Below are positions 10,503 through 41,174 of a stretch of 41,174 nucleotides of DNA, one piece after another. Under the pieces are notes generated by a model that made no database searches, was not told where the DNA came from, and saw only the letters and a program-made list of their open reading frames with translations. Numbering within the stretch: the stretch's first letter is position 1; each line of letters starts with the position of its first letter. The translations under genes were made by a program, and so were the position numbers. Source of the stretch: Candidatus Micrarchaeota archaeon (lineage in GTDB: Archaea; Micrarchaeota; Micrarchaeia; Anstonellales; J096); NCBI GenBank assembly GCA_030550115.1, contig JAUQPY010000031.1, positions 1 to 41,174 on the forward strand. The letters run 5' to 3'.

Positions 10503-10540
10503 TTCTTGAAAATTTAGTAGTAAATATAAATAAAAAAAGA

Positions 10541-11521: not shown

Positions 11522-11552
11522 TCTTTTAAATAGAAATATAAAAATAAAATGT

Positions 11553-12293: not shown

Positions 12294-12325
12294 ATTTTTT
12301 AAAGTATTACATTATTAGTTAATTA

Positions 12326-12398: not shown

Positions 12399-12460
12399 TG
12401 CACATATTGTTTTAAAAAGCTTCTATAGATATATAATGAAAATCGATAGGTGGTGAGGTA

Positions 12461-14124: not shown

Positions 14125-14132
14125 GTGATACT

Positions 14133-14375
14133 ATGATAATTGCTATTCTGAGAACTGAGAAGGCTATGAATGATTTAATGAATAATAAATTGTATTTCAT
14201 CGTAGATCTTAGAGCCACAAAGCCTCAGATCAAAGAGTTTGTCGAGAAGAACTTCAATGTAAAAGTGGAATCTGTGAGAACTCATATAAATATGAGAGGC
14301 GAGAAAATAGCTATAGTGAAGTTAGCAAAGGATTATAATGCTAATGAAATATTGGATAAAATCACTATCGGGTGA
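14133..14375 (+). CDS. rpl23: 50S ribosomal protein L23 (uL23)
   Basis: TEKAM, NNKLYFIVD..ATK..IK, GEKIAIVKL. Confidence 0.96.
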   Translation: MIIAILRTEKAMNDLMNNKLYFIVDLRATKPQIKEFVEKNFNVKVESVRTHINMRGEKIAIVKLAKDYNANEILDKITIG

Positions 14376-14380
14376 GTTGT

Positions 14381-15091: not shown

Positions 15092-15106
15092 TATTGAGGT
15101 GAGAAT

Positions 15107-15526
15107 ATGTATAGTTATCAACCTAATCTTAGAAAAGGATATTCTGAGGATGATCTGAAGAAACTCGATATAGAATCTGCTATGAAGTTGGTTAAGAGCA
15201 GAGCTAGAAGAGCTATTAAGAGAGCTCTGGAAGGGAAATCTATAGAATTTAGAAAATTAATTCTTAAAGTTAGAAAACTTAAGGAGAAAAACTCTAAGAA
15301 ATTGCAAGAGGGTATTAAGACTCATTGTAGAGAGGCAGTCATTTTGCCAGAATGGATAGGCCTGAAATTCTTAGTTTATAATGGTAAGGAATGGAAACCT
15401 GTAGAGATTTCGATGGAAAAGGTAGGACATAGATTGGGAGAATTTGCATTTACAACTAAATTTGAGAAACACGCTGGTCCAGGTATTGGAGCTACTAGAG
15501 GTAGTAAGTTCATAGCTATGAAGTGA
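15107..15526 (+). CDS. rps19: 30S ribosomal protein S19 (uS19)
   Basis: KTHCRE.VILPE, YNGK, GHRLGEF, GIGATRGSKF. Confidence 0.97.
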   Translation: MYSYQPNLRKGYSEDDLKKLDIESAMKLVKSRARRAIKRALEGKSIEFRKLILKVRKLKEKNSKKLQEGIKTHCREAVILPEWIGLKFLVYNGKEWKPVEISMEKVGHRLGEFAFTTKFEKHAGPGIGATRGSKFIAMK

Positions 15527-15960
15527 TGTTTATGAAAATTGCAAGAGCATCTATTGAAGGTGTAGATGCATCATACAAGGATTTAGTGGAAATAGCAAGT
15601 TTTATTAGATACAAAACATTAGTTCAGGCCAGAGAGTTACTTGAACAGGTAATAAGAGGGGAGAGATATGTGCCATATCGTAGGTACAATAAGAAAATGG
15701 GGCATAGGAAACACGGGGAAAAAGGAAGATACCCAAAGAAAGAGGCCAAGATAATGCTGAAGCTTCTGAACTCATGTGCTGCAAATGCTAGACAGGCAGG
15801 AATGGATGAGAACAATCTTAAGATCATACATGTAGCTGCTAATAAGAAAGCGATTTATTACAGAATTCAACCTAAAGGTAAACCTTTCAGACAGAGATAT
15901 GTTTTGTCACGAGCTGAGATTATATTGGGTGAGATAGATGCTAAAGGAGCAAAGGATTAA
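15523..15960 (+). CDS. rpl22: 50S ribosomal protein L22 (uL22); start may be ATG 15532
   Basis: SYKDLVEIA, VPYRRYNKKMGH, GRYPKK, ANA. Confidence 0.96.
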   Translation: MMFMKIARASIEGVDASYKDLVEIASFIRYKTLVQARELLEQVIRGERYVPYRRYNKKMGHRKHGEKGRYPKKEAKIMLKLLNSCAANARQAGMDENNLKIIHVAANKKAIYYRIQPKGKPFRQRYVLSRAEIILGEIDAKGAKD

Positions 15961-16606
15961 ATTCATCAATAACAGGATCTCAGAGATAATTATTGCAGAG
16001 GAACTCAAACACATGCTAAAGAATATAGGTGTAGTAGTTATCAATCTTAGAATTCAGAAGCTACCTATGGAAACCAAGATAAGCTTAGAGTATTTCCCTG
16101 TGAGTAAGGAATATGCGAATAGGAATGATCTAATCCAGAAAATTAGAGAGTTTGTAACCAACACATTCAGAATTCAGAATATAAATGTAGAGGTTAGTAG
16201 AACTAGAAATTATATCATGGAACCCGCTGTAATAGCTACTTTTATAGAAGAAGCTTTACAGACAAACAAACCAATTAGAAATATAATATATAGGTATCTC
16301 TACAAAATCAAAGAAGCAGGAGCTATAGGAGGGGAGATATACGTTAAAGGTAAGTTGGGTGCTAGAGGAGCTAAGGCAAGGAAGATCAAAGCATCTTTTG
16401 GGTTTATCCCTAAGGCAGGAGATTTGAGAAAATATGTTAAAATGATTAATTATCAAGCGGTAACCAAAGCAGGAGTAGTAGGAGTAGAGGTTATGATAAC
16501 TCCTCCAGAAGTGGAGCCATATTTGAAACCTCAACAGAAAGAGAAAGTCAAGAGAGAGATAGAGATCAAGCCAGATGAAGATATAGATGAATCATCTGAA
16601 GAATAG
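15938..16606 (+). CDS. rps3: 30S ribosomal protein S3 (uS3), divergent
   Basis: AGAIGGEIYVKGKL, G.IPKAG, TKAGVVGVEVMITPP; synteny. Confidence 0.92.
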   Translation: MLKEQRIKFINNRISEIIIAEELKHMLKNIGVVVINLRIQKLPMETKISLEYFPVSKEYANRNDLIQKIREFVTNTFRIQNINVEVSRTRNYIMEPAVIATFIEEALQTNKPIRNIIYRYLYKIKEAGAIGGEIYVKGKLGARGAKARKIKASFGFIPKAGDLRKYVKMINYQAVTKAGVVGVEVMITPPEVEPYLKPQQKEKVKREIEIKPDEDIDESSEE

Positions 16607-16640
16607 ATTTTTAAAATGTTTTTCCTATAAATAAATCAAT

Positions 16641-16808
16641 ATGAAACCTAAAGAACTAAGAGATATGAGTAATGATGAACTGCTTGCTCTTGAGAGAAAT
16701 CTGCGATTGTTACTTCTTAAAACAGATAGAATAAAGAGAAGGCCAATACGAAGAGAGATAGCTAGGGTTCTAACTGTCCTAGGTGAAAGGGGAATAAAAA
16801 TTGGCTAA
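16641..16808 (+). CDS. rpl29: 50S ribosomal protein L29 (uL29), absent from ORF track
   Basis: Manual translation MKPKELRDMSNDEL...IRREIARVLTVLGE; between uS3 and aIF1. Confidence 0.93.
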   Translation: MKPKELRDMSNDELLALERNLRLLLLKTDRIKRRPIRREIARVLTVLGERGIKIG

Positions 16809-17097
16809 GATTAACATCCCTGGATTTGATAATGAGATTGATTTTGAGAAAGAGGATATCTCAGTAAGAATTAAAATATACACAGAAACTTCAAAATTCA
16901 ATAAACTAGTTACAGTGATTTCTGGAGTAGGCAAGAAAAATTTAGAGGAGGTAGCAAAGTTTCTGAAGAAAAAATTGGCGTGTGGTGGTACTATCAGAGA
17001 TGATGGGGCGATAGTATTACAAGGAGATCATAAAAAGAGAGTACCTGGATTGCTGAAAGAATTCGGTTACAAAGAGGAACAGTTTGAATTATTGTAA
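16801..17097 (+). CDS. sui1: Translation initiation factor aIF1 / SUI1
   Basis: KLVTVISG, LKKKLACGGT, LQGDH; TTG start after GGTGA. Confidence 0.95.
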   Translation: MAKINIPGFDNEIDFEKEDISVRIKIYTETSKFNKLVTVISGVGKKNLEEVAKFLKKKLACGGTIRDDGAIVLQGDHKKRVPGLLKEFGYKEEQFELL

Positions 17098-18912
17098 TTT
17101 ATAAACATACAGAGATCTGTTCTGATAAATAAGTTTGTAATTATCATCTATTTTAATTCTTTCATAGTTCCTATAATCAATTATGTAAATTCTAAATGTT
17201 TTGATATAGAATTCTCTTATAGCAGGGTCTAACCAACCATCTGCGGTTATATATGAAATTCTATTTGCATCTAATTCAGATTTACATTCTAAACAGATCA
17301 GAGGATCTCTTATGTATTGTCTGTATTCGTACCTAGATAAGTGTTTTATATTGGGTATTATCGAACTGAATTCTGATGCGATGAATCCATTCAGATCAAT
17401 AACTATGTATTTTACTCTGTATTTGTTCAATAACTCCTGTGCTAGACTGCGATTTGATGAATATAACATAATAGCAGCGTCTAAATCTCTATTTGAGAAA
17501 TTAAGAAATGGTAAGTGGAATGATTGGGCCCATCTACTTGCTACAACATTGTTTCCCGTGTATGCATTTAGAGCAAAGGCAATAGGTTTATTACTAAGTA
17601 TTACACCTGGATCCTCAGATATTATCCTAATAGCTTCTGCGTATTCTGGAAAGAGATCTGTTAGGGTTAGGTTGTATTTCTTCAAATTTGTAAAGCTGCT
17701 TGTATAAGATTCATACGTAAAGTGGAGCTGTGCTAAGATGAATAATCCTAATAACATACCATATTCTGATTTTCTGTAGGGTATTGATAGCAAAATTAAG
17801 GGTGTTAATACTAGTGAAGTTGTGTAGGTAGGTACGGTATTGAATAGGAATAGATCTAGAATAGGAGATATTAATATTAGAATCGATGTGAGAATTATAT
17901 ATTGGTCAAATTCGTACAATCTCCTATCCTTGAATAGGCTATATAAATACGCCACGATGATCAATATCTTCGGCATCATCCATTCCGGAATATATTTTGT
18001 GTATAGAAACAACATACCCTCAGAATTGGAATACACTGGAAAATCCAATCTGTTTCTAGGAAAGTATTCGTTGAATATATCTAGTCTGTATATCATATAC
18101 AAACCTAGAGGTAATAGCAATAGGATTGGTATTATATCTTTGAATATATTATTTAATCTCTCCTGATTCATTAATCTACGGATGATATCGTATGAAATAA
18201 ATATTAATACATATAGTAGTAGTAGAAAGTGGGATATTGTTGATAGTAGAATAGCTAAAGCGTAATTACGTTTTAATATCAAATACAATACTATTGGACT
18301 GATAATAGATACGGCAAATTCAGTGTATTTTAGTATTACTGGAGTTAGAGACGATGCAACTATAAATACTAACATAGCCACTCCGTAGGATGCTCCTAAT
18401 CTCAAACTGATGTAATACCATATGATAGTTGAATATAATAAGATAGAAGATAGGAGTTTCATAGCTGAAATGCCATCGATATTCATCAATCTCATTGTGA
18501 TTACAACTAACCAGGAGTAGAGTGGGTTATAGGAGAACAATTTTCCCTCGTAATATTGGTTTCCAAAAATATCCAGAGTCCTGTTTACATAATTTATCTG
18601 CCCCAACTGAGCATAGTAATCCCCACCGAATACTGGTGAAGGGAGCTCCTTGAAAGATAGGAGAAATTGATATGAACTAGAGGAAAGAATAGAAGCTATT
18701 ACAAATACAATCCCTGTAAATAACCCTGGGATAAGATTGGATGACTTATAAGAATATATTCCGAGAGTAACTATTGATATAATGATACTTGGATTCAAAT
18801 AGAATATATCATAAATATTGATTGAATTGAAATATAATAAACCTAATGCATTGATGATTATAGATATTACTCCAATCTTTTCCAGATCTGTCCATCGAAG
18901 TATTCTATCCAT
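17089..18912 (-). CDS. Polytopic membrane protein, GT-C glycosyltransferase-like
   Basis: More than 10 hydrophobic segments; early-loop GGDYY and Y.PLY motifs; AglB/STT3-like C-terminus (A.ELL.KY.VKYIV); no WWDYG. Confidence 0.55.
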   Translation of the reverse strand: MDRILRWTDLEKIGVISIIINALGLLYFNSINIYDIFYLNPSIIISIVTLGIYSYKSSNLIPGLFTGIVFVIASILSSSSYQFLLSFKELPSPVFGGDYYAQLGQINYVNRTLDIFGNQYYEGKLFSYNPLYSWLVVITMRLMNIDGISAMKLLSSILLYSTIIWYYISLRLGASYGVAMLVFIVASSLTPVILKYTEFAVSIISPIVLYLILKRNYALAILLSTISHFLLLLYVLIFISYDIIRRLMNQERLNNIFKDIIPILLLLPLGLYMIYRLDIFNEYFPRNRLDFPVYSNSEGMLFLYTKYIPEWMMPKILIIVAYLYSLFKDRRLYEFDQYIILTSILILISPILDLFLFNTVPTYTTSLVLTPLILLSIPYRKSEYGMLLGLFILAQLHFTYESYTSSFTNLKKYNLTLTDLFPEYAEAIRIISEDPGVILSNKPIAFALNAYTGNNVVASRWAQSFHLPFLNFSNRDLDAAIMLYSSNRSLAQELLNKYRVKYIVIDLNGFIASEFSSIIPNIKHLSRYEYRQYIRDPLICLECKSELDANRISYITADGWLDPAIREFYIKTFRIYIIDYRNYERIKIDDNYKLIYQNRSLYVYKLQ

Positions 18913-19883
18913 TTCTCATGGATCACCATTAATATACGATTGGGTTCTTTAGCACATGTTGGTGAATTACACACTATGTATTTTCCACCTAGATCACCAA
19001 GAGTTATTCCTGTAAGAGGATCTACCACATATCCCCAGGTGAGATTCTGATATGATTGGACTGGGATAGATGATATTGCGACACCACAATGTCCAGATTT
19101 TTCTGTGTTAAAACATACTACTACAAAATCATACTCACTAACTTTTGCAAATAGCTGAGGCGTGTATCCTCTTAAAATCACATCTCGATATACTATATAA
19201 TTATAATATGGTGTATCCAGAATGCTCACCGGTCTTGTCCCCTCTAGATACATATTTGGATTCAATGATCGTAATAGTTCTCTCAACATCAATGCATGCT
19301 GTTTACAATCTCCATATCCTTGTTCAATAAACTTTTTCAAGGTATGAAACTCTGATATCCTATTATTATAACCATACTCCATTCTGGTAACATAGACTGC
19401 ACATGGTATCTTTAGATTAAAGCCATCACTACATTCTCTTAGAATTTTGGATCTAAGATAGGGGTCAGGATATTCTGAGTTCTCTCTAAACCATTGTGAG
19501 AGATTTTTAAATATTAACCACTCTTCCTGCTTACTGTGATTTTTCATAATCTCCTCCATAATCTTTAGAGTAGAATTCACCTGTAAGCTCAGGTTGTTAT
19601 ATTTTTGAAGTAGCTCCTGATATTCCATTTCCAATTTCTCCTTCTCATTACTTAATTCTGAATACTGATTAGATAGATTTTTGATTATCTCTGATGCTAA
19701 GAGATTTTGAGACTTTTCCTGTGCTAATTTATCCTGAAGTGAATTTATAGTTATGTAAAGTTCTGTTATTGTAGTATTATATTCATCTCTGATTGAGTCG
19801 ATAGTTGTTAAGTGTAAATAAACAACAGATATAATCGCAGATACCAAGATTGCTATGATTAAGTATATTGACTGATAGTTCAT
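18867..19883 (-). CDS. Membrane-anchored transglutaminase-like cysteine protease with coiled-coil stalk
   Basis: N-terminal TM, heptad region, then GDCKQHA (Cys), GHC (His), VVDP (Asp). Confidence 0.75.
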   Translation of the reverse strand: MNYQSIYLIIAILVSAIISVVYLHLTTIDSIRDEYNTTITELYITINSLQDKLAQEKSQNLLASEIIKNLSNQYSELSNEKEKLEMEYQELLQKYNNLSLQVNSTLKIMEEIMKNHSKQEEWLIFKNLSQWFRENSEYPDPYLRSKILRECSDGFNLKIPCAVYVTRMEYGYNNRISEFHTLKKFIEQGYGDCKQHALMLRELLRSLNPNMYLEGTRPVSILDTPYYNYIVYRDVILRGYTPQLFAKVSEYDFVVVCFNTEKSGHCGVAISSIPVQSYQNLTWGYVVDPLTGITLGDLGGKYIVCNSPTCAKEPNRILMVIHEKWIEYFDGQIWKRLE

Positions 19884-19917
19884 GTATTTATAATAAAAAC
19901 ATTTTTATAAAATATCC

Positions 19918-21099
19918 ATGGATCTTACTATTGATCTTCATATACATGGTAAATATTCTAGAGCTACCTCATCTAAGCTTGAACCATACATTCTAGCTAG
20001 AACAGCAGAGCGTAAAGGTATAAATGTGCTTGGAACCGGTGATTTCACCCATCCTAAGTGGTTGGAGATGTTCACAGGTTTAGAGCAAGAAGATGGTCTG
20101 TTAACTATGGGAGATATTAAATTTATGCTAAGTGTAGAGGTGAATAATGTTTTTGAATACAACTCTAAAACTCTTACTATCCACAATGTTATATTAACCG
20201 ATTCTATAGAATCTGCAAAACAAATTGCAGATGCTCTATCAAAATATGGTGATATTGAAGCTGACGGCAGGCCTACTCTTAATATATCTATGCTAGAGAT
20301 GATGGATCTACTAAAGAGCTTAAATCCAAAGACGGAAGTATTCGCTGCACACATATGGACTCCTTGGTTTTCTATACTGGGGGCTAGGAATGGATTGAAT
20401 AGCATTTATGAAGTTATAGATCGTAGACTATTGGCAGTAGAAACGGGTTTGAGCGCAGATCCAGAGATGACTTGGAGTACTCATGCTGGTGATTTTCCAA
20501 TAATATCTAACTCCGATGCTCATAGTCCTGATAATCTGGGAAGAGAAGCTACTGTTATAGATGTGGAGAGAATCACATACAATGAAATAATATCGTCTAT
20601 AAAGAACAGAAAGATAATTAAAACATATGAATTCTATCCTCAAGAGGGTAAGTACTACTATGATGGTCATAGAAACTGTGGGATCTCTTTACATCCGGGG
20701 GAGAGCATTCAGAATATGAATATATGTAGAAAATGTGGAAAGAAATTGACTATAGGGGTTCTCCATAGATGTATGGAATTAAGGGATAATATCTCCAGAC
20801 CTAGGCAGAAGTTTATTTATATAATACCGATTAGAAAAGTGGTATCTTATGCAACCGGTTTGAATGAGAATAGCAAACGTGTGGATGATTATGTAAATAG
20901 ATTGATATCTCTATATGGAAATGAGCTTAGTATATATGAGAAGATTACTAGAGAGGATATGGCTGAATATGGTGAAATTGGTGAGAGAATATACAGAATA
21001 ATAAAAGGAGATATAGAATGGCAGCCAGGCTACGATGGAGTATATGGAACTTTTAAATTAAGAGATAAGAAGGGATTATTTGAACAGTTAAAGCACTGA
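19918..21099 (+). CDS. endoQ: Endonuclease Q (PHP domain plus Zn finger)
   Basis: DLHIH..YSRATS, GTGDFTHP.W, AHIWTPWFS, ETGLS, NSDAHS, GKYYYDGHR.C...CxxC, PGYDGVYG. Confidence 0.9.
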   Translation: MDLTIDLHIHGKYSRATSSKLEPYILARTAERKGINVLGTGDFTHPKWLEMFTGLEQEDGLLTMGDIKFMLSVEVNNVFEYNSKTLTIHNVILTDSIESAKQIADALSKYGDIEADGRPTLNISMLEMMDLLKSLNPKTEVFAAHIWTPWFSILGARNGLNSIYEVIDRRLLAVETGLSADPEMTWSTHAGDFPIISNSDAHSPDNLGREATVIDVERITYNEIISSIKNRKIIKTYEFYPQEGKYYYDGHRNCGISLHPGESIQNMNICRKCGKKLTIGVLHRCMELRDNISRPRQKFIYIIPIRKVVSYATGLNENSKRVDDYVNRLISLYGNELSIYEKITREDMAEYGEIGERIYRIIKGDIEWQPGYDGVYGTFKLRDKKGLFEQLKH

Positions 21100-30478: not shown

Positions 30479-31306
30479 TTAAAAGTTCAACTCTTCATAG
30501 ATCCTGTTCTTCTCCTCTTTGGGAAGTGCTACTAGGGAGAATATAAGGAGCTTGGATAGATACAAAGCCTGTTCAGTATCGTAGAAAGCCAGTAATCCGA
30601 GGTAAGTACTCTTGATCAATTCTATTAATTTCTGTTTATTTTCTTCTATTTTAGTCTGTATTGCAGGTAAATTTGTTCTATTGATAAGTTTTCTGAGTTC
30701 AATAATTTTCCTATCTAAATAGAATATCTCTAAAAATTTCTCTCTTATGGATTTGGGTAATAGCATAGGATTATAACCTAATGGAAAACTGTAGCTGCCC
30801 AACAGATATTCTATTATTTCTGGCTTATATTCGATATTGTTCTCTAGTGCAAATACAACTGCCTGCATTTTCATTATCCTATCCACTACATCATCGCTAT
30901 AATTGATAGCTCTGTCCACCATACCCTGAATAGCAGATTTCTCAACAACAGTCCCTTTGGATCTGAAGTAATCGTATATTAGATAAACTATCGGATCGTA
31001 TTCCCCCTGCGAATATGGTTTTATGTTATGTATTAGGATCTCTATGTATTCTTTCAATTCTGGACTCTGATTAATACGTTCTAGAAGTTGATTTGCCTCC
31101 TGTATGGTTAATCTTAGCTCTACAAGGATCTGAATTGCCTTTTTTATGTATTCATCATCCAGATGTCTCTGAAAAAGTTTGATATATATGATAGCTAGTG
31201 ATAACTTATCCTCATCAGATAGATGTTTAGCTTTTCTGAATGCATATTCTGCTAACTGTACATACCCATTTGCATATAATACTTTTGCAGCGATATTATA
31301 TATCAT
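30479..31306 (-). CDS. Hypothetical all-helical (TPR-like N-terminus) protein
   Basis: A..LY..G....A..AF.KA pattern; ATGA overlap with the SMC-like gene. Confidence 0.65.
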   Translation of the reverse strand: MIYNIAAKVLYANGYVQLAEYAFRKAKHLSDEDKLSLAIIYIKLFQRHLDDEYIKKAIQILVELRLTIQEANQLLERINQSPELKEYIEILIHNIKPYSQGEYDPIVYLIYDYFRSKGTVVEKSAIQGMVDRAINYSDDVVDRIMKMQAVVFALENNIEYKPEIIEYLLGSYSFPLGYNPMLLPKSIREKFLEIFYLDRKIIELRKLINRTNLPAIQTKIEENKQKLIELIKSTYLGLLAFYDTEQALYLSKLLIFSLVALPKEEKNRIYEELNF

Positions 31307-33555
31307 AACAATACTTTACTATAATTTACAGATCCATCCTTGCTCTTTTCTCTGAATACTTGGATAACCTGATTCCACATCACATTATTCTTTAATCTAT
31401 CATCATGTGTTATTATTATAAATTGATCTATATGATCTAAACTCAGTCTATTGATATTGTCTACAAGATTATCTATTGAAGAATCATCTAGATTATGGGT
31501 TGGTTCATCTAGTATTATAACTCTTAATCTCCTAGTGATCAGATTCAGAATGGCCAGTCTCAATGATAGAGCATAAATAGTTTTCTCCCCTCCACTCAAT
31601 CGATCAGCGGAAACCTCATTATCTCCTATGGAGATCTTCAATTCATATCCATCAGATTTATCTACAGCTATCTTTGGATCATTGTAAACTACACCTGCGT
31701 AAAGAGAATTCCAGAATAGACCCATACCTAGATTGATGTTCTGTATATATACTTGTCTATTTTTCGTCTGTAGATCTGAAATTCTATTCTTTATCTCCTC
31801 TAATTCTTTCTGCAAAGCTCTTAATATCTCCACACGCTCTATTTTCCTTTTCATATCTTCAATATCTCTCTCCAGTATCTCTATAGACTTCTGGAACTCT
31901 TTGCTCTGATTAGTTAGTAGGTTTATTTCTGATTTAGTACGTTTTATAGCCTCTTGTAATTCTACATATCTTTTAGACCATTCTCTGTATATTTTATCGT
32001 TTATCTCTAGTGATTTGAGTGTTTGATCTATCGATTCTAAGTTTTTAACAAAATTTTCCAACTCCTGCCTCAACTCTAATAATCTTTTCTGATCTTTCTT
32101 ATAAGATTCTATATTTCCAAGTGCTCTAGATATCTGGTCTCTGCGTCTCTCCAATTCTTTACCATAATCAGAAGGGATTTTACTCATGATATCTTTAAGT
32201 TGTTCGGAGACACTATTCTTATCATTCTTCAATTTCTCCAACTCTTGCTCCAGAACATTTAACTCATTCCGGATAGAACTGATCTCGGCTTCAATCCTTT
32301 TGGTATCATTATTAACTCTTTCTAATTCATTACTCCATCTACTCTTCTGTTCATTGTACTTAATATGAAGATATAATGCTGCTATCCCAAAAACTATAGC
32401 AGGTAATAAGGCAAGATTTATTACAAATATCCCAATTCCAAGAGCACCCATAGCTAAAATTAAAGCTATTATAAAAGTTAAATTTGAGGGTTTGGACCTG
32501 TTCAGTTGTTCCAACTCCTTTCTTAATGTATCTAATTCAAGATTACGCTCCTGCAAGGTTCTATACAAATCTTCTCTATTTCTAAATACACTATCGTACT
32601 TCTGATTGAGCTGATTCTGCAGATCATTCAATTTCATCGATTGATCTGTATATAACCTAAACTGCTCAATCTCCTTCTCTAGCTGCAATCGTTTCTCTTC
32701 TAATACTTCTGGATCCTCTAACTGAGTATTGCTGATTATCTGTTGCAATTTTTTAATATCCTGATTTAACCTATCTATCTTGGTTTCAGTTGCTATTTTT
32801 TTATCTCTGTATTGAATATATGTATTGTATTTCTGTTCTATTGTTTCCTTCTGTTTAGTCATACTCTCATAATCATTCTGCAATGATCTGAATTGTGAGT
32901 TCAACTCCTCTATTCTGGAGAGAGTGGTTTGATATCCTGATTTGAGTCTCTCCAATTCTTTCTGCTTAGTTCTATAACCATCCAAATCAATCTCCGTCTG
33001 CTTTATCTGATCTTTGATCCTATTTATTATCTTAGTTATCTTATCTATTCTATCCTGTATCTCTTCTATTCCCAATACTCTATCTATATTTAGCTTTAGC
33101 TCTTTAGGAGGCATGTTTATTAGCTGATATATATTGTCTTGAGCTCCATAGAATACATTACCAAATAATCTTTCGTCTATATTCAGAACCCGAGTAATAT
33201 GTTTTAGTATTTCATCATCATTTTCAGATATAAGATTTGAGTTATAATATAGCGCAGATCTACTCGGCTTATCTCTATATAAATTCCTAACGATTCTGAA
33301 ATTCTTCCCATCAACAGAAAACTCAATCTCTACCTTTGCAGACTTCTCCCCATCTCGTATGAAATTCCTCCTATTCTGCTTATTAATCCCTCTGTAACTA
33401 GTCTTTACTTCACCGAATAGAGCAAACACAATTCCTTCTACAATACTAGTCTTCCCAGAACCATTCTTACCATGAATTAATATCTTACCATGTCTAAAGG
33501 AGATCTGTGTATCTCGATGAGACATCCAATTCTGCAGTATTAATTTTTGTATCAT
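31303..33555 (-). CDS. Rad50/SbcC-like SMC ATPase with central transmembrane hairpin
   Basis: Walker A GKNGSGKT, Q-loop YGAQ, long coiled coils, signature LSGGE, Walker B ILDEPT, D-loop NLD, H-loop ITHD; hydrophobic residues 359-398; no Cys. Confidence 0.9.
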   Translation of the reverse strand: MIQKLILQNWMSHRDTQISFRHGKILIHGKNGSGKTSIVEGIVFALFGEVKTSYRGINKQNRRNFIRDGEKSAKVEIEFSVDGKNFRIVRNLYRDKPSRSALYYNSNLISENDDEILKHITRVLNIDERLFGNVFYGAQDNIYQLINMPPKELKLNIDRVLGIEEIQDRIDKITKIINRIKDQIKQTEIDLDGYRTKQKELERLKSGYQTTLSRIEELNSQFRSLQNDYESMTKQKETIEQKYNTYIQYRDKKIATETKIDRLNQDIKKLQQIISNTQLEDPEVLEEKRLQLEKEIEQFRLYTDQSMKLNDLQNQLNQKYDSVFRNREDLYRTLQERNLELDTLRKELEQLNRSKPSNLTFIIALILAMGALGIGIFVINLALLPAIVFGIAALYLHIKYNEQKSRWSNELERVNNDTKRIEAEISSIRNELNVLEQELEKLKNDKNSVSEQLKDIMSKIPSDYGKELERRRDQISRALGNIESYKKDQKRLLELRQELENFVKNLESIDQTLKSLEINDKIYREWSKRYVELQEAIKRTKSEINLLTNQSKEFQKSIEILERDIEDMKRKIERVEILRALQKELEEIKNRISDLQTKNRQVYIQNINLGMGLFWNSLYAGVVYNDPKIAVDKSDGYELKISIGDNEVSADRLSGGEKTIYALSLRLAILNLITRRLRVIILDEPTHNLDDSSIDNLVDNINRLSLDHIDQFIIITHDDRLKNNVMWNQVIQVFREKSKDGSVNYSKVLL

Positions 33556-34289
33556 ATTTTTCTAATTGATAGAGAAAACTTATTAAAATATAAATTAGCC
33601 CCTAGAATCACAAGGAATGGTACTATTATAAATATGTTTATTATCAACATTATAATTCTAACAATATCCAATGGAAATACTAGACCAAATATGAAGATTA
33701 GAATTAGATTTATTATCAAGCCTATAGCAGAATACATAATAGGATAGATTGCTAGCTCTTTTCTAAAAATATATAGTTTCCTAATTGCTCTATCAAAATC
33801 GACTTCTTCTATAACAATAGCGTATGGTATAAATAGGAATATATAGCTGATTAGGAAGAATATTATAGAGAGTATCATCGGATCCCATGCATTTACATAC
33901 CATAACACTGAGAGATTGAACTGTATCAGAAACCAGATTATAAATATCTTATAAACCTCTGGAAAACTAGAGGTGATGTTTTTTATAAACACACTTGGAT
34001 ATATTCTATCGGCTCTGTATTCTTTGGTAGCTACTGTTAATATAATCAGAGATAGGGTATAGAGTGCAATAACGATCAGAAAAGAGAATAGTGCAAATAT
34101 GAACTCGAGTAGATTTATTTCAGTTATCTTAGATATACGCAGGAATATTCCTGTAACTGAAATATATATGTAATCTTGAAAGGTCAATATTAGAATACCC
34201 GTGACTATAAGTATAACAAATCCTAATAATATGATCAGATCATACGCCTGTTTAAATATCTCTATACTACTTTTAATCTCAAATATCAT
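33552..34289 (-). CDS. Multi-pass membrane protein (about 6 TM)
   Basis: Strongly hydrophobic ORF; ATG 34289 preferred (TATA 27 nt upstream, avoids overlap with the divergent gene); ATGA overlap with the SMC-like gene. Confidence 0.75.
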   Translation of the reverse strand: MIFEIKSSIEIFKQAYDLIILLGFVILIVTGILILTFQDYIYISVTGIFLRISKITEINLLEFIFALFSFLIVIALYTLSLIILTVATKEYRADRIYPSVFIKNITSSFPEVYKIFIIWFLIQFNLSVLWYVNAWDPMILSIIFFLISYIFLFIPYAIVIEEVDFDRAIRKLYIFRKELAIYPIMYSAIGLIINLILIFIFGLVFPLDIVRIIMLIINIFIIVPFLVILGANLYFNKFSLSIRKI

Positions 34290-34333
34290 ATATATATTAA
34301 AACCTAAGTTTTTAAATATAAACAGGTGATTCC

Positions 34334-34999
34334 ATGAGAAACTTATTAGATGCCGAGACAAGAAAGATCCTAACAGATTATCTGAGCAAGATGGAGAGCC
34401 AGGTAGAACTAGTTGTTATTCTAGATCACAATTCCCCAAATTGTGTTTACTGTAAAGATATACAACAACTGTTTACAGAACTAGCCGAATTGAATATACC
34501 TAAACTGAAGATAACTATATTTGATAAATATCATCCTGAATTTGAGAAGAGATATGGAATACGTGAATCTGATGTTCCTGCTATTGTGTTTGTGAATAAT
34601 AATATAAAAGGACAGATAGTCTATAGAGGCGTTCCATCAGAACAGGAATTTAGTGTATTTATAGAGACTATATTAGAGGTATCATTGGGACACATACATA
34701 TCCCTCAGGAACAAATAGAGAAATTAAATAGAATCGATAAGAAAATTAAGATAAATGTCTATGTAACCCCAACATGTCCATACTGTCCAACAGCAGTAGC
34801 AATGGCATTTGCAACAGCAATGGTTAATCCAAATCTCTCAGCACATGCAGTTGAAGTGACCGAATTTGAGGAGGAGGGAGCTAAATACAATATAAGAGCT
34901 GTACCTACAATAGTTATAAATGATGGAGCAGTTAAATTTGAGGGAGCATTGCCCTTGGATCGATTTATAGCTAAGATTGAGGAAGCTGCAAAGAAATGA
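34334..34999 (+). CDS. pdo: Protein disulfide oxidoreductase (two thioredoxin folds)
   Basis: CVYC and CPYC, RGVPS..EF, AVP.IVIN, FEGA.P. Confidence 0.9.
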   Translation: MRNLLDAETRKILTDYLSKMESQVELVVILDHNSPNCVYCKDIQQLFTELAELNIPKLKITIFDKYHPEFEKRYGIRESDVPAIVFVNNNIKGQIVYRGVPSEQEFSVFIETILEVSLGHIHIPQEQIEKLNRIDKKIKINVYVTPTCPYCPTAVAMAFATAMVNPNLSAHAVEVTEFEEEGAKYNIRAVPTIVINDGAVKFEGALPLDRFIAKIEEAAKK

Positions 35000-36036
35000 G
35001 TGATCTAGATAGTAGATTAGAACTATTCAAGAGAAGGCCTACAGAAGAGATAGTTAATGAGGATCTGCTGATTGCTAAACTAGAATCAGGAAAGACACTT
35101 AAGCATTACATAGGATTTGAAGTCTCCGGATTGATACATTTAGGTACCATATCAACATTGCTGAAAGTGAGAGATTTAAAGAGTGCTGGAGTGAATGTAA
35201 ACATATTTATAGCTGATTATCATAGTTGGATAAATCGTAAGTTTGGAGGTGATCTAGATCTTATAAGAAAAGTATCCTCGGAATATTTTAGACCATTTCT
35301 TGAGATTATGGGGATAGAAGCTAATTACATATTAGCATCAGAATTATATGATAACGATTATTGGAGATTGGTTTTGCAAATAGGTAACTCAAGTACTGTG
35401 AACAGAGTAAAGAGAACACTTACTATCATGGGAAGAGAAGAATCTGATAGTAATCCTGTCTCATTCTTCATATACCCTCTCATGCAGGCTGCAGATATAT
35501 TCAAGCTGGAAGTGGATATCGCTCATGCAGGTATGGATCAGAGAAAGGTTCATATGTTAGCAGTGGATGTTGCAGAGAAGATAAACAGAGAGAAACCAGT
35601 GTGTTTACATACTCATCTAATTCCTGCTCTAGATTATGATGGTAGAATGGATATAGTTGATGCAAAGATGAGTAAGAGCAAAGGGAACAGTGCTATATTT
35701 ATACACGACTCTGAGGAGGAAATACGTAGGAAGATAAATGGGGCATATTGTCCTCCAAGAGTCCTGGAGAATAATGTTGTATACGAGATATTGAAATGGA
35801 TTATAATTAGAACGGATACGGAGGAATTTACAATACCTAGAGATATGAAATATGGAGGGGATATAACTCTAACTATGCCTGAGTTTGAGAGATTATACAT
35901 TGAAGGTAAGATCCATCCAATGGATTTGAAGAGATTTGTTTCAGATAGTCTGATAAGAATGCTTGAACCTGCTAGAAAATTAACTGAGCAGAAAATGGAT
36001 CTGGTGAATTTTGTAAAATTATCTAGAACTAGATAA
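34996..36036 (+). CDS. tyrS: Tyrosyl-tRNA synthetase
   Basis: YIGFEVSG.IHLG, YPLMQAADIF, GMDQRK, KMSKS, HPMDLK. Confidence 0.97.
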   Translation: MSDLDSRLELFKRRPTEEIVNEDLLIAKLESGKTLKHYIGFEVSGLIHLGTISTLLKVRDLKSAGVNVNIFIADYHSWINRKFGGDLDLIRKVSSEYFRPFLEIMGIEANYILASELYDNDYWRLVLQIGNSSTVNRVKRTLTIMGREESDSNPVSFFIYPLMQAADIFKLEVDIAHAGMDQRKVHMLAVDVAEKINREKPVCLHTHLIPALDYDGRMDIVDAKMSKSKGNSAIFIHDSEEEIRRKINGAYCPPRVLENNVVYEILKWIIIRTDTEEFTIPRDMKYGGDITLTMPEFERLYIEGKIHPMDLKRFVSDSLIRMLEPARKLTEQKMDLVNFVKLSRTR

Positions 36037-36070
36037 AGGTTTTAAAAACTATTATAATTCTTTAATTAAC

Positions 36071-36478
36071 ATGCACGTACACCAAATAAGAGCAGATGTA
36101 TTAATAAGAAAACTTGCTGATCGATTGAAAAACGAATTACCCAAACCTGAATGGGTTGATTATGTGAAGGCTGGAGTATATGCAGAAAGACCTCCCGAAC
36201 AGGAAGATTTCTGGTGGATAAGAGCTGCGGCTATAATGCGAAAACTATATTTACATGGAGCTATAGGTGTGTCTAGATTGAGAAAAATGTATGGTAAGAG
36301 AAAGAAGAGAGGAGTTAAGCCAGAGCACAAATACCCTGCTGGAGGAAAATTGATTAGAAATATCCTTCAGGGTTTGGAGAGATTAGGATATGTGAGAAAG
36401 GTTCAGAAAGGTAGAGAATTGACTGGCAAGGGAAGAGCTCTATTGGATTCTCTTGCTAAGGAATATGGATCAGGATAA
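36071..36478 (+). CDS. rps19e: 30S ribosomal protein S19e
   Basis: PEW..YVK.G...ERPP...WWIRAAA.MRK, GRELT..G. Confidence 0.96.
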   Translation: MHVHQIRADVLIRKLADRLKNELPKPEWVDYVKAGVYAERPPEQEDFWWIRAAAIMRKLYLHGAIGVSRLRKMYGKRKKRGVKPEHKYPAGGKLIRNILQGLERLGYVRKVQKGRELTGKGRALLDSLAKEYGSG

Positions 36479-36743
36479 TAAACCAAAACAGGAACCTAGA
36501 GACAAGGAAGAAGAGATAAAGAGATTATTAGTAATTGCCCTTACTCCTGAGGCATATACAAGATTGATGAATGTTAGAATCGCCAATCCTGAATTTTTTC
36601 AACAGGCTGCATCTGTTGTGTTACAAATCTTCTCCAGATATGGAAAAAAGGTGGATGAGCAGAGTTTGATAGATATTCTTAGAAAACTCAAGGAGAGATC
36701 TGATAGTGATAAGGGCGGAAACATAATCATACGGAGGAAGTGA
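36465..36743 (+). CDS. PDCD5-family DNA-binding protein
   Basis: LTPEA..RL.NVR.ANPE, L..IL, C-terminal IRRK; follows S19e as in many archaea. Confidence 0.88.
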   Translation: MDQDNKPKQEPRDKEEEIKRLLVIALTPEAYTRLMNVRIANPEFFQQAASVVLQIFSRYGKKVDEQSLIDILRKLKERSDSDKGGNIIIRRK

Positions 36744-36780
36744 TAATTTTTTAAAAAGTGTTTAAATAATATAAAAATAG

Positions 36781-38319
36781 ATGGGAATTATTGATATCAT
36801 AACCAGAAATCTATTAATACTGGCTCTAGGTCTGGGGATCGGCCTAGCTATAGCTGTTTTGATATACTTCTACAATCTTATATTCAAGAAAGATCAGGCC
36901 AAATCCTTGGATGCAGTTAAAGATGTTATTATAGTTGTTTTCTATCTGATATTACTATTTGCAATTGATCTTGCGTATAATCTATTCCTATCGGCATGGT
37001 TAGGTATCCCTGTGGGTCCGGGTGATAATCTGAGGATTGCTGAGGCAGTAATCTACAAGGATATCGATAAATTCAGGGAGACTTTGATGTATATATACGT
37101 AGCAGATTTTGTGATTAATCTCTTTGGATCATTTTCAGCACATCTACATGCAGCAATAAATCCGGAGATGACCAAGTTGCAAGGAGTGTCTGTTCTAAAT
37201 AGAGTAATGGAAGGTATGACTTCATTATTACAAAAGGCTAGTTTGGATCCTTACAAAGCAGAGATGGGTATTGATTATTTCTATAAGATGAATTCTGTAA
37301 TACAACTGCTCTACAATGCCTCATATGGTCTGTTCCTAGTTCTTGTATATAAATATATCAAACTCACAGTTATAACTTACTTACCTCTAATTATGTCTAT
37401 CTTTATTCCTTTAGGTCTAGTTCTGATATTCATACCTATTACTAGAAAGGTAGGAATGACTATTGTTGGGTTGGCAGTAACACTTTACTATCTCTTCCCA
37501 GTGTTTATAATATACTCAGACACTGTTCTTAGGAATATGCCTGATTTTGATCACAGATATATTTCAGCTTATATCTCTCCTACCATAGTAGAATTTTTGG
37601 ATAAGAGTTCAGGATCTAATCCTGCCACAAGAGCAGGTTATAAGTACGCATTTATAGAGAGAGAAAAGGCAATACAGAAATCTCTGGATTACGTATTCCT
37701 AGAACAAGATAGGAGCAATATTATGGAGCCTGATCAGAACAATCCTGTGGGGAAGCTGGAGAAAGAAGGAGTAGGTGTGTTTCATATATATTCATTCGTA
37801 GATGCACAATCAGTATGTGACCCAGGGACCAATGACAGAGAAGTTTGTAGAGAATATCAAACAGCTAACATAGGTGACTACAGATCAGAGAATGTATTAG
37901 CTCCTCTTGGATCTCTGTATGCAAATACAGTAAAATACTCTGCAATAGTTAGAGTAGGAACAGCTATAAAACAGGTTATATCCACAGCATCCATAGTATC
38001 ATCTCTAAATCCATTTGCAGTTGCAATGATAAATATACTTGGAATGGCTGTTAATATGTTCCTGTTTGCAATCCAAATAACTCAGGTTTTACCTATCCCT
38101 GGATTGAGCCAAATCCTATATGGAGCTCTAAATATTCCATTCTTACCATTCCTAATGTTTAGAACTGCATTAGAAGCAGCATTGATAGCTTACAAGATAA
38201 TTATATATGGATCTATAACTATCTTTTTAGATATCTTTCTAATTATCACCGGATATAGAGCAGTAGCATCTGTAATTGGAGCTGAGCAGAGAATACTAGG
38301 TTTGGAGAGGGTGCTGTAG
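36781..38319 (+). CDS. Polytopic membrane protein, paralogue 1 (CedA/VirB6-like)
   Basis: Shared motif PLGLVLIFIPITRKVGMTIVGLAVTLYYLFP; large loop with a Cys pair; family call is by resemblance. Confidence 0.55.
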   Translation: MGIIDIITRNLLILALGLGIGLAIAVLIYFYNLIFKKDQAKSLDAVKDVIIVVFYLILLFAIDLAYNLFLSAWLGIPVGPGDNLRIAEAVIYKDIDKFRETLMYIYVADFVINLFGSFSAHLHAAINPEMTKLQGVSVLNRVMEGMTSLLQKASLDPYKAEMGIDYFYKMNSVIQLLYNASYGLFLVLVYKYIKLTVITYLPLIMSIFIPLGLVLIFIPITRKVGMTIVGLAVTLYYLFPVFIIYSDTVLRNMPDFDHRYISAYISPTIVEFLDKSSGSNPATRAGYKYAFIEREKAIQKSLDYVFLEQDRSNIMEPDQNNPVGKLEKEGVGVFHIYSFVDAQSVCDPGTNDREVCREYQTANIGDYRSENVLAPLGSLYANTVKYSAIVRVGTAIKQVISTASIVSSLNPFAVAMINILGMAVNMFLFAIQITQVLPIPGLSQILYGALNIPFLPFLMFRTALEAALIAYKIIIYGSITIFLDIFLIITGYRAVASVIGAEQRILGLERVL

Positions 38320-38320
38320 A

Positions 38321-39394
38321 ATGTTGTCGATCATAGATAGTTTTGTTGTAGCGTTGGTAATGATAGTTGCTGGATATATATTGTTACTATTTGTCATGGC
38401 TAGACTTAGTAGTAACGAAGAGTGGAAACAGAATTTCAAGATAGAGTTGCAACAGCTACTATTGAGTTTGCTATTACTAATAGGTGTATACGCGATAGCA
38501 GGTTTTGTTACTATGATCTATCAATACTATACAGGTGGATTGGATGCATTCAACTATCTATCCATTCAACTAATATCCATAATGAAAAACTTACACTTCT
38601 ATGCATCTCATCTAACTCTTTCAGCATCTCTAATGAGAATGTTCGGAGAGTTTACAAATATAGGTTATCCGCATGGTTCTTATGGATCAGCTAGATTACC
38701 TACTACTCCTGGTGTAGATCTGTTAGCATCAGTTACTTTTCAGATCAGAGATCTGCTTATGATAGCTACAGGTGGTTTGGTTATGCAATCTATACTTTTT
38801 GATCTTATAAAGAATCTAGCACTTACTGTAGTATTGCCTATAGGGATTGTTTTGAGAATCTTGCCAATCACTCGACAATTTGGAAATGAACTGATCGGCC
38901 TGAGTGTTTCATCATATATAATATTACCTATTATTTATTTGGTTTTCTTCCAAACCATCCAAGAAGTTGCTAATGAGAGAGGAGGGTTTATAGAGAGGTT
39001 TGTTGATGGATATCTTGCAATAGGTGACACTAGATTGATAGAGCCAGATAAGATAATCGTTGATATACAGAAAGATCACCAGACCAGTATTCAGGACAGT
39101 ATGGATAGATTGAACAACTATTTTGATAGATATAAATCAGAGATTGATTCAGAAGTAATGGGAAGTACTGCTGATGAGCATAGGCTCTACAGATTCTTTG
39201 AAACCTATTTAACTACTGGATTGATATTAGGATTTCTAAATGTAGGATTTCCCATATCATTTCTATTTCTTTACTCCTTATTGCTATATGCCTCAGGATT
39301 CTTAGTATTTGGATTTGGATTACCAGGATTTGCCATAGCAATAACACTGACAGCTGCTAAGAGTATTAGAGATTCTCTGGAGAGATTGGTATGA
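38321..39394 (+). CDS. Polytopic membrane protein, paralogue 2 (CedA/VirB6-like)
   Basis: PIGIVLRILPITRQFGNELIGLSVSSYIILP. Confidence 0.55.
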   Translation: MLSIIDSFVVALVMIVAGYILLLFVMARLSSNEEWKQNFKIELQQLLLSLLLLIGVYAIAGFVTMIYQYYTGGLDAFNYLSIQLISIMKNLHFYASHLTLSASLMRMFGEFTNIGYPHGSYGSARLPTTPGVDLLASVTFQIRDLLMIATGGLVMQSILFDLIKNLALTVVLPIGIVLRILPITRQFGNELIGLSVSSYIILPIIYLVFFQTIQEVANERGGFIERFVDGYLAIGDTRLIEPDKIIVDIQKDHQTSIQDSMDRLNNYFDRYKSEIDSEVMGSTADEHRLYRFFETYLTTGLILGFLNVGFPISFLFLYSLLLYASGFLVFGFGLPGFAIAITLTAAKSIRDSLERLV

Positions 39395-40578
39395 ACCCAA
39401 TTATAGATGCAGTTGCCCCTATTATAGGGATATCAATTTTAATATACATAATAGCTTATCTCGTTGGGAGAATTCTGAACAAACCTGATATACCTGCCTT
39501 TATCAACATGGAACTCTTATCTCTTATAATTTTCATAGCTCTACTGGTAGTGTTGTTGTATATGTTGGATTTTGCAGTTGATATAACTATATCGAATCTT
39601 AATCCTGATGCAAAATCTGAAGTATGTGATAAATATGGAATATCTATATCAAGATGTCATGTTGCTATAGCAGGATATTTTCTGGAGAGCGTACTTAGGG
39701 AACTTACAGATTATTATATACAGTTAAATGCAGTTCTTCTAACTACTAATTTTGTAAAACAGACTTATTCTGTGAAAGCAATTCAGGGAGATAAATTCGT
39801 AAAGCTAAACATGAATCCATTTATATTCGTACCCTCACTGTACATAGAACCTATAATCGGATTGGTTCAGACGATGTTGCAGTTCGCTATAGCCCAGTTC
39901 ATTGTTCTTTGGTATATCACATCTCCGCAGTTTTTCATAGGTTTCTTGACTTTAGGAATTGTTCTTAGATTATTTGCTGTAACCAAATCGGCTGGTGGAT
40001 TGATAATAGCTCTAGTTATAGGTTTATATTATGTATTCCCAATGGCATATGTTCTGATAGATGTACACTACAGATATTCATATCCTGGTACTTATGGGTT
40101 TGATAAGATAAATACCTATAGAGTTACTGATCATCTCCTATCTACATTTGGAATTCCATTTGGAGATCGATTGGATGCGGCCATAAATGCCATACTGAAT
40201 GTAGAGAGTAAACCTATTGATCCTAATGATCCAGATTCAGTAGTTAGTAGTTTGGGTGCTGCTCTCAGTAACATGGCTAGCATAGCTAAAGCGATTATAA
40301 AGATTGCTACTGTATTAGGTGCCATGCTATCAGTATATACCCTCTCATTTTTACCGCCTGTAGCTATAGGATATACTCTTGTAGGAGATGCTGTTCCAGA
40401 TATAATGAGTAGTATTATTAATATGCCTATTATTCTATTAAACATCTACACTGAATTTTTTATAATATTTGCAGTACTGATATACATATCTCTAATAAGC
40501 ACTGTGGCATTTGTTAAAACACTATCCCCAATATTAGGTGGTGACGTTGAAATTGCTGGTATTACTCGTTTTATATAG
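39391..40578 (+). CDS. Polytopic membrane protein, paralogue 3 (CedA/VirB6-like)
   Basis: TLGIVLRLFAVTKSAGGLIIALVIGLYYVFP; C-terminus LSPILGGDVEIAGITRFI. Confidence 0.55.
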   Translation: MNPIIDAVAPIIGISILIYIIAYLVGRILNKPDIPAFINMELLSLIIFIALLVVLLYMLDFAVDITISNLNPDAKSEVCDKYGISISRCHVAIAGYFLESVLRELTDYYIQLNAVLLTTNFVKQTYSVKAIQGDKFVKLNMNPFIFVPSLYIEPIIGLVQTMLQFAIAQFIVLWYITSPQFFIGFLTLGIVLRLFAVTKSAGGLIIALVIGLYYVFPMAYVLIDVHYRYSYPGTYGFDKINTYRVTDHLLSTFGIPFGDRLDAAINAILNVESKPIDPNDPDSVVSSLGAALSNMASIAKAIIKIATVLGAMLSVYTLSFLPPVAIGYTLVGDAVPDIMSSIINMPIILLNIYTEFFIIFAVLIYISLISTVAFVKTLSPILGGDVEIAGITRFI

Positions 40579-41174
40579 TATCCTATCATTAGCCTCCTCA
40601 TGTGACGATGGGGGGTTTATTAGTCAGGAGTGTATTGAGAGAGATATTTATGGTAAGTTTGATGAGAATCTTGTATATAATGGATTTAAAAAGGTGTTTT
40701 TAGATGCGAGAAATACTGCTCTAAATATGTTAGACAATCTAATCGTAAATGTGATAGGTCCTTATACATTCTGTAAAAGCACTAATCCTGTAGATGTGTC
40801 CAATCTTTTGAATACAGTCGGAATAATAGTATTCATATCACTACTTCTCATATACATTCTAAATGCTATTGCATCTATCTTTGGATTACAATGGAGAATA
40901 TCTCTGTTGGATGAGGCATTTCAGGCTCTATTAACCATATTAGTAGTAATACTGATAGTAGGGGTTATTAATTACTATACTTATAATAATATATTCATTC
41001 AGGCAAAACAGTATGTAGTTAATATAATTATAAATTTCTCCTTCTTCTCCATGTTGCTCAAGACTATTGAAACTATGTTAGTAGCTCTATCGAATATTAC
41101 AATCCCATTTGGTCCTCCAGATGCTAGAGGAATTTTTGGAGTATCATTCTCCCAATTATTCACAATAGTATTCA
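40547..41174 (+). CDS. Polytopic membrane protein, probable paralogue 4, 3' truncated, absent from ORF track
   Basis: Open from TTG 40547 (after GGTGGTGA) to the window end: MKLLVLLVLYSILSLASSCDDGG... then TM-loop-DEAFQALLTILVV, matching IELQQLLLSLLL of paralogue 2. Confidence 0.7.
   Translation, partial: MKLLVLLVLYSILSLASSCDDGGFISQECIERDIYGKFDENLVYNGFKKVFLDARNTALNMLDNLIVNVIGPYTFCKSTNPVDVSNLLNTVGIIVFISLLLIYILNAIASIFGLQWRISLLDEAFQALLTILVVILIVGVINYYTYNNIFIQAKQYVVNIIINFSFFSMLLKTIETMLVALSNITIPFGPPDARGIFGVSFSQLFTIVF

Follow-up and report, generated by a model that had tools for sequence, protein, structure and literature searches.

Six paralogous membrane proteins of Micrarchaeota as the probable core of a Ced/Ted-like machine derived from type IV secretion systems

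The archaeal Ced and Ted systems each combine three parts, namely a pilin (VirB2-like), a channel (VirB6-like) and an ATPase (VirB4-like), according to passages of the study that describes them (PMC9905601). Here, we analyzed a stretch of 41,174 nucleotides (nt) of DNA (hereafter, the window), which is the whole of contig C5 of a Candidatus Micrarchaeota genome (label G000; 575,622 bases in 31 contigs, 84% complete) and which ends in a tandem array of diverged polytopic membrane proteins. We propose that this protein family is probably the hetero-oligomeric membrane core of a chromosomal, Ced/Ted-like machine descended from a type IV secretion system (T4SS). The likeness to CedA and TedA, the channel proteins of the DNA-import systems of Sulfolobales and Thermoproteales, was drawn from published descriptions: in both cases, a polytopic protein encoded on an archaeal chromosome goes together with a two-helix VirB2-like pilin and a VirB4-like ATPase. 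The family is also too diverged in sequence for BLAST or Pfam, as Ced and Ted are from one another in the same study (PMC9905601). Unlike Ced and Ted, which have a single channel gene, the Micrarchaeota family has six fixed paralogues in an array that is itself duplicated; moreover, the arrays of the source genome are unlinked from the ATPase.

The VirB6/TrbL proteins resemble the family in being polytopic, with variable extracytoplasmic parts, and in having their gene between a pilin and a VirB4-type ATPase, an arrangement found for the family in relatives of the source organism. They differ in that no profile or sequence similarity connects the two groups, in that the host of the family is a single-membrane archaeon, and in that known VirB6/TrbL assemblies are homo-pentamers whereas the family has six different subunits. 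Neither a VirB7-10 core nor a relaxase was found, although no search was aimed at them. Tandem, diverged and often enlarged VirB6-like genes are found in the vir-homolog T4SS of Rickettsiales, which are obligately host-associated, genome-reduced organisms. The Rickettsiales arrays belong to a bacterial diderm system, carry recognisable TrbL domains and vary in copy number, whereas the Micrarchaeota array is strictly of six genes, with positional orthology across the phylum. For Nanohaloarchaeota, a DPANN lineage, a T4SS-derived ATPase was proposed to act with giant surface proteins, the SPEARE-type proteins with a VirB4/TraG-like ATPase domain, as the host-interaction apparatus (PMC10266531). 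There, ATPase and giant protein are fused, and the portions of that article concerned with them make no mention of a VirB6-like array, whereas Micrarchaeota have a separate ATPase and a membrane set of six paralogues. Our literature search found no description of VirB6-like arrays in Micrarchaeota, and a term search of the main text of Sakai et al. 2022 (PMC8784108) was likewise without a match.

How DPANN archaea connect to their hosts and draw from them is an open question, structures having been seen by cryo-tomography with no genes assigned to them. The array described here is a candidate part of the cell-contact apparatus of Micrarchaeota. Its family, to which about 12 genes of a 0.58-Mb genome belong, occurs in most of the phylum's sampled genomes and provides a testable list of parts, namely six membrane subunits, an ATPase, pilin-like proteins and giant surface proteins. 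If our proposal is true, this would be the first T4SS-type machine whose VirB6-like part is a fixed set of six different subunits, and it would bear on how the symmetry between ATPase and channel is set.

The features of the array in the window are as follows.

36744-36780, forward strand: spacer of 37 nt upstream of gene A, AT-rich, with TATA-like words; the preceding gene ends at 36743
36781-38319, forward strand: gene A, array position 1, open reading frame (ORF) of 512 amino acids (aa), polytopic membrane protein, family profile E 9.4e-39
37408-37500, forward strand: core motif of A, G-x-x-L-x3-P-x-T-R-x2-G ... P, a turn between two membrane helices
38321-39394, forward strand: gene B, array position 2, ORF of 357 aa, family profile E 1.8e-51
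38837-38929, forward strand: core motif of B, by translation
39391-40578, forward strand: gene C, array position 3, ORF of 395 aa, family profile E 5.9e-58
39949-40041, forward strand: core motif of C, by translation
40538-41174, forward strand: gene D, array position 4, truncated by the contig end to its first 212 aa

An earlier note, made from the letters of the window, had described membrane protein genes abutting or overlapping one another at this end, and the four same-strand ORFs indeed follow each other with a 1-nt gap between A and B, a 4-nt overlap between B and C and a 41-nt overlap between C and D. The spacer in front of A, judged by its base composition and words, may be an archaeal promoter, which would be compatible with the one promoter named in the note. 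The shared motif on which the note relied was recovered by translation in the three complete paralogues, as PLGLVLIFIPITRKVGMTIVGLAVTLYYLFP in A, PIGIVLRILPITRQFGNELIGLSVSSYIILP in B and TLGIVLRLFAVTKSAGGLIIALVIGLYYVFP in C, and the C-terminal tails and the cysteine pairs of the loops were also present in the ORF translations as it had reported. The R, G and P columns of the motif are nearly invariant in the family alignments. Paralogy was above chance in pairwise BLASTP comparisons (E 2.6e-7 for A-B, 1.9e-4 for A-C, and 1e-3 for B-C), and a family profile built from 61 sequences matched A to C with E values of 9e-39 to 6e-58 and the D fragment with an E value of 6.9e-14. Searches of A to D against Pfam and NCBIfam at E values up to 10 returned noise only and assigned no family.

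The same note had counted at least four genes. Four are present in the window, but this count was incomplete, since the full array has six members and continues on contig C1 with the tail of D and two further genes.

C1:1-471: tail of gene D, family-profile positions 228-348, E 5.8e-14
C1:476-1846: gene E, array position 5, 457 aa, complete family member
C1:1849-2829: gene F, array position 6, 327 aa, complete family member

The D fragment of the window covers profile positions 19-157. On the intact array of a genome of the same genus (G002), 170 nt separate the mapped end of C5 from the mapped start of C1. The intact D protein of that genome is 425 aa long, and the two pieces of the source genome match its residues 1-212 and 270-425 with 95% identity; the assembly gap therefore removes 57 residues of D (213-269), the core motif included. 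A second array of four tandem members (933, 341, 893 and 379 aa) is present on contig C22, where it runs into the contig end, and its proteins at positions 1 and 3 (933 and 893 aa) bear large Cys-rich extracellular domains. We also excised 14 arrays from the genomes of relatives, 11 of them from seven relatives (ten with six members and one with five) and three from other families of the class (all with six). Exactly six tandem family genes were thus found in 13 of the 14 arrays, and five in the remaining one.

To compare array positions, a quick IQ-TREE tree was computed for 74 members from match columns aligned to the profile. This tree has many long branches, with 34 of its 71 forks unresolved and a deep order that is not readable, but the proteins clustered by array position with 11 label changes against a minimum of 10, compared with a mean of 51.3 for shuffled labels, and none of the 200 shuffles reached so low a count. 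One label change was needed for each of positions 2, 5 and 6 and one for the single-copy proteins; gene A fell among the position-1 proteins, and the position-2 clade, to which gene B belongs, had a Shimodaira-Hasegawa-like approximate likelihood ratio test (SH-aLRT) value of 96. The six positions are separate ancient lineages. Furthermore, the same division into two array types recurs at every position, one type grouping the array of the window with those of loci L023, L024, L026, L028 and L032, and the other grouping the C22 array with those of L025, L027, L029, L030 and L033. Since each position divides into the same two groups, the six paralogues predate a duplication of the whole array, and this duplication is itself older than the taxonomic order to which the source organism belongs. 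Such a pattern is the one expected of obligate, non-interchangeable subunits of a single complex, which is how we infer that the proteins work.

The distribution of the family is in line with long retention. The profile found it in 30 of 31 close relatives, the remaining genome (83% complete) being without any candidate, and in 135 of the 151 sampled genomes of the phylum, or 134 of 150 when G054, which is flagged as unpublished, is left out. No members were found in the genomes searched from families f16, f20 and f22-24, and single copies were found in two of the eight genomes of family f17. Against 1.84 billion cluster representatives, the profile matched 3,532 clusters at E values up to 1e-3, of which 1,657 at E values up to 1e-30, and a word-indexed homolog search with B returned 7 close relatives only, one of which is labelled as a Micrarchaeota metagenome-assembled genome; by this label, the source organism would be a hot-spring member of the Micrarchaeota. 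The family is chromosomal and vertically kept.

The ATPase, which had been noted as missing from the window, was found elsewhere in the genome, within an operon on contig C21.

C21:17622-19175: VirB4/HerA-superfamily ATPase, 517 aa

Its domain matches were DUF87 (E 7.5e-14), P-loop_TraG (E 1.8e-11), AAA_10 (E 8.9e-10) and also TrwB_AAD_bind, and its longest match in the PDB was the C-terminal domain of VirB4 (4ag5, E 8.9e-11, over residues 62-344). PF03135, the N-terminal domain of VirB4, was without a match in this 84%-complete genome. The operon reads, in order, a 274-aa protein with two transmembrane (TM) helices, the ATPase, a 135-aa TM protein, a 233-aa EAP30-like protein and a 786-aa TM protein. 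The ATPase is present in all 31 relatives, with 49-100% identity. The canonical HerA repair helicase was rejected as a partner, as the HerA-type gene at C3:4627-6066 is without membrane neighbours.

The association between array and ATPase was observed in other families of the class. In all three genomes examined for it (G123, G062 and G041, from families f15, f14 and f13, respectively), the ortholog of the C21 ATPase (45-49% identity) has a six-gene array 1.7-1.85 kb upstream of it in the same orientation. The array and the ATPase are separated by two proteins, each of about 275 aa and with 2-3 TM helices, and the genes that follow the ATPase are the same as in the C21 operon of the source genome. 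Small pilin-like genes precede the array in G123 (two) and G041 (one), none being detected in front of that of G062. In family f17, both genomes examined (G163 and G165) have a single family gene in the array slot beside the main ATPase ortholog, and in G041 (L060) and G062 (L061) a single family gene, with a pilin-like gene in front of it, precedes a second, weaker ATPase match. Within the window's order, six of ten loci with a paralogous ATPase read single family gene (299-359 aa), two-TM protein, ATPase, and at the other four, either no family gene is present or a contig end interrupts the locus. A small protein with 2-3 TM helices lies directly upstream on the same strand at four of these six single-gene loci; of the other two, L037 is cut at the contig start, and L039 has a small ORF on the opposite strand. 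The family occupies the slot that VirB6, CedA and TedA hold in the T4SS, Ced and Ted clusters, as these are laid out in sections of PMC9905601. We regard this gene context as stronger evidence for a VirB6-like role than the fold comparison given below.

Several other features were observed around the ATPase genes. The EAP30-like protein of the C21 operon (C21:16555-17253; L034:8555-9250, minus strand; 232-233 aa), two genes past the ATPase, matched EAP30/Vps36, the winged helix of ESCRT-II, with an E value of 1.2e-6, just over the curated cut-off, and its counterparts beside the paralogous ATPases gave weak matches to EAP30/Vps36 (E 7e-4 to 0.027). In L047 (G020:C30:1-19999, at 8812-19997), an array with at least five members, in a stretch that ends about 470 nt before the contig does, is separated by about 3 kb, holding a 166-aa protein of five TM helices and a 712-aa protein, from a divergent ATPase of 508 aa encoded on the opposite strand (E 6.6e-12 against the C21 ATPase). 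In L038 (G024:C46:26000-45999, at 142-11400), a two-TM protein and a paralogous ATPase have, immediately in front of them, giant proteins of 1,294 and 1,689 aa in place of a family gene. Finally, L046 (G023:C7:30000-47878, at 4816-10915) has a distinct cluster of more classical appearance, with two small TM proteins (125 and 63 aa), an 835-aa protein of eight TM helices that the family profile does not match, and an ATPase of 1,002 aa (E 6.6e-15 against the C21 ATPase) that bears TM helices at its N-terminus; this cluster may be the transfer system of a mobile element.

In parallel, small proteins were compared with known pilins. Matches to T4SS_pilin (PF18895), TrbC/VirB2 (PF04956) or both, spanning almost the entire profile, were obtained for nine of the 13 tested, in every case below the curated cut-offs (best E 2e-5). 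With a profile of four pilin-like proteins adjoining family genes, three candidates were found in the source genome (E 3e-8 to 2.5e-7), of which only one matched TrbC, weakly (E 0.15).

C29:4250-4564: pilin-like candidate
C25:408-731: pilin-like candidate
C25:724-1059: pilin-like candidate

The N-terminus of CedA resembles CedA1, as reported in passages of Beltran et al. 2023 (PMC9905601). In the family, the protein at position 2 of the C22 array matched PF18895 in its N-terminal part (E 2.8e-5, short of the cut-off), and the family profile weakly matched pilin-like proteins, with E values of 0.0022 and 0.092 in the source genome and of 5e-6 and 9e-4 in G123. Taken with the contrary comparisons given below, this is a mixed result, and a pilin-like N-terminus of the family is a lead suggested by these weak matches.

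The fold was compared by means of AlphaFold2 models of B (predicted local distance difference test, pLDDT, 84; predicted template-modelling score, pTM, 0.75) and C (pLDDT 80). In a VIA search of 48,161 chains, model B ranked DotA of the Legionella Dot/Icm system first (9ngy, Z 9.1, 272 residues aligned, root-mean-square deviation (rmsd) 9.5) and TrwI/VirB6 second (7o3v_F, from R388, Z 8.9, 213 of 261 residues, rmsd 6.4), and model C ranked the same TrwI chain first (Z 7.4, 199 of 261 residues, rmsd 7.1). The best structural matches of the two models were therefore VirB6 and DotA proteins, with nearly the whole TrwI chain covered. Among the other rows of model B, those with an rmsd below 5 Å had at most 100 residues aligned, and longer ones (up to 154 residues) had rmsd values of 5.3-15.7. 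The N-terminal hairpin of model C (residues 1-69) aligned with the CedA1 pilus subunit 8dfu_B at rank 36 (Z 5.6). A protein atlas structure search with C returned its own family only, with a template-modelling score (TM-score) of 0.66, and a complex prediction for B and C, with a score of 0.24 against a mark of 0.32, neither supports nor opposes binding. On these models, a VirB6-like fold of the family is suggested only. In addition, a protein-language-model lead connected the family with a score of 0.89 to a Micrarchaeota cluster, 23% of whose members carry PF27251 (CedA1).

The VirB6/CedA-like reading put forward in the earlier note is thus supported by the fold rank of 7o3v_F (second and first) and by gene context in relatives, and not by sequence. 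Both a structural match and a VirB4-like ATPase in the genome, the joint lack of which had been named as grounds for giving up this reading, were found.

Several results nevertheless weigh against a VirB6-like assignment. The VIA Z-scores of 7.4-9.1 are in a non-decisive range, the tool requiring about 13 for helical proteins, and because models B and C share a fold and were built from overlapping alignments (59 of the 61 rows of alignment A3 are also in A5), they count as one line of evidence and not two. Foldseek found nothing significant for model B in the PDB (best E 0.14), its weak rows being ATP-binding cassette (ABC) exporters and TTYH, with TM-scores of at most 0.25 and rmsd values of at least 15 Å. 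At the level of sequence, TrbL (PF04610) matched none of A to D at E values up to 10, none of 112 family members at E 0.1, and nothing anywhere in the genome at E 10. The family profile found no VirB6 or other T4SS protein among PDB sequences, only ABC-transporter noise (E 0.24), and hhalign gave a probability of 0.1% between the family and an alignment of 26 sequences, of low diversity, built from the TrwI query of plasmid R388. Pfam matches over the 112 members were T4SS_pilin (PF18895) in only 2 and every other family in at most 1, and hhalign between the four pilin-like proteins and the family gave a probability of 1.7%, which does not support N-terminal homology. As regards linkage, a family gene was adjacent to the main ATPase in none of five loci of the window's order, and the arrays (C5/C1 and C22), the ATPase operon (C21) and the pilin-like genes (C25 and C29) of the source genome are on different contigs. 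Moreover, solved VirB6 and DotA assemblies are pentamers and not hexamers. The negative sequence tests are not surprising, because the components of Ced and Ted are themselves without recognisable sequence similarity between the two systems, as stated in passages of Beltran et al. 2023 (PMC9905601).

The mechanism that we propose can be set out as follows. A to F would be six non-interchangeable paralogues and the Micrarchaeota counterpart of the VirB6/CedA/TedA channel or platform subunit. Most likely, one copy of each would co-assemble in the cytoplasmic membrane to give a hetero-oligomeric platform, probably of pseudo-six-fold symmetry, a stoichiometry and symmetry suggested by the constant set of six. 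This platform would dock the hexameric VirB4/HerA-like ATPase of C21 and, together with this ATPase and the VirB2-like two-helix proteins, would form a conduit or the base of a pilus for cell-to-cell contact or exchange; its cargo may be DNA, metabolites or effectors, as suggested in the earlier note. The inserts at the N-terminus and after the core motif are Cys-rich and follow signal-like starts, which suggests an outward orientation of the N-terminus and of the variable loops; this would place the near-invariant R...P-x-T-R-x2-G turn on the cytoplasmic side, within possible reach of the ATPase or the two-TM proteins. The small VirB2-like proteins themselves would make up a pilus or conduit, and giant secreted proteins may be adhesins or the outer part of the machine. 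As VirB6 and DotA form pentamers, a six-subunit ring matching the hexameric ATPase would be a new solution, and our confidence in a hexameric ring of six subunits is lower than in the functional assignment.

Giant proteins are also the ground for the alternative that has to be taken most seriously, although we consider it unlikely. The six proteins could be a membrane base that exports, anchors or operates giant Cys-rich surface proteins, as an adhesin or envelope machine and not a translocation channel, any descent from a T4SS being irrelevant to their present function. Giant secreted proteins of 1,230-1,764 aa flank six of 11 arrays (5/5 of the second type and 1/5 of the window type), positions 1 and 3 of the C22 array carry large Cys-rich extracellular domains themselves, two giant proteins stand directly before the paralogous ATPase in L038, and in the window's order the arrays are unlinked from the ATPase. 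However, the window's own array has no giant-protein neighbour, and in three other families the array is inside a pilin-ATPase cluster. The two explanations also overlap, since a base derived from a T4SS could carry an adhesin.

A bolder form of our own proposal appears rather improbable to us, somewhat more so than the adhesin base. The six paralogues would form a pseudo-six-fold hetero-hexameric ring whose symmetry matches that of the hexameric VirB4-like ATPase, a design not known from any T4SS. In association with giant surface proteins, this ring would make up the membrane core of a docking barrel of about 21 nm in strain ARM-1, serving as a gate for the uptake of host cytoplasmic material. 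This barrel-shaped docking platform, where host nanotubes enter, was observed by cryo-tomography in the envelope of Microcaldus variisymbioticus ARM-1, a cultured hot-spring member of the Micrarchaeota, and its molecular identity is given as unknown in the relevant passages of the report (PMC11329633).

Polytopic proteins with differing extracellular loops might also be independent permeases or channels with one substrate each, lying in tandem only through their duplication history, and the weak Foldseek rows do include membrane domains of ABC exporters. Yet these rows have TM-scores of at most 0.25 and rmsd values of at least 15 Å, no transporter family matches A to D at E values up to 10, and the single-copy members are always beside an ATPase. 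Independent transporters would not stay exactly six, in one order and with each position an old clade, throughout the phylum, and we regard this explanation as very unlikely. Lastly, that the array is part of a mobile element, such as an integrated conjugative plasmid, and serves the transfer of that element is hardly credible: sets of VirB2-, VirB6- and VirB4-like genes are typical of conjugative elements, and the L046 cluster of one relative may be such an element, but the array stands amid housekeeping genes with the same synteny in the same-genus genome, has a guanine-plus-cytosine content like the rest of the contig and belongs to a family that occurs in 135 of the 151 genomes sampled from the phylum, its positional orthology tracking kinship, while the best match of the genome to a VirD4-type coupling protein (PF02534) has an E value of 0.008 and misses the cut-off.

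The genes next to the array were named by reading their sequences, and we take them to encode S19e, a PDCD5-like protein and a seryl-tRNA synthetase-like protein. In three metatranscriptome runs of one study, of which 3-5% each was covered, no reads fell over positions 34900-41174, the housekeeping genes of this region included, a result that speaks neither for nor against expression of the array. A forward-strand gene (34334-34999), which precedes the array and its loops with cysteine pairs by about 1.8 kb, encodes a 221-aa protein with two CxxC motifs (CVYC and CPYC), presumably a protein-disulfide oxidoreductase. Further upstream, on the reverse strand, a 750-aa protein (31303-33555) has a Walker A motif near residue 28 and an N-terminus that looks Rad50/SMC-like, and its gene has a 4-nt overlap with that of a 269-aa multi-pass membrane protein on the same strand (33552-34361).

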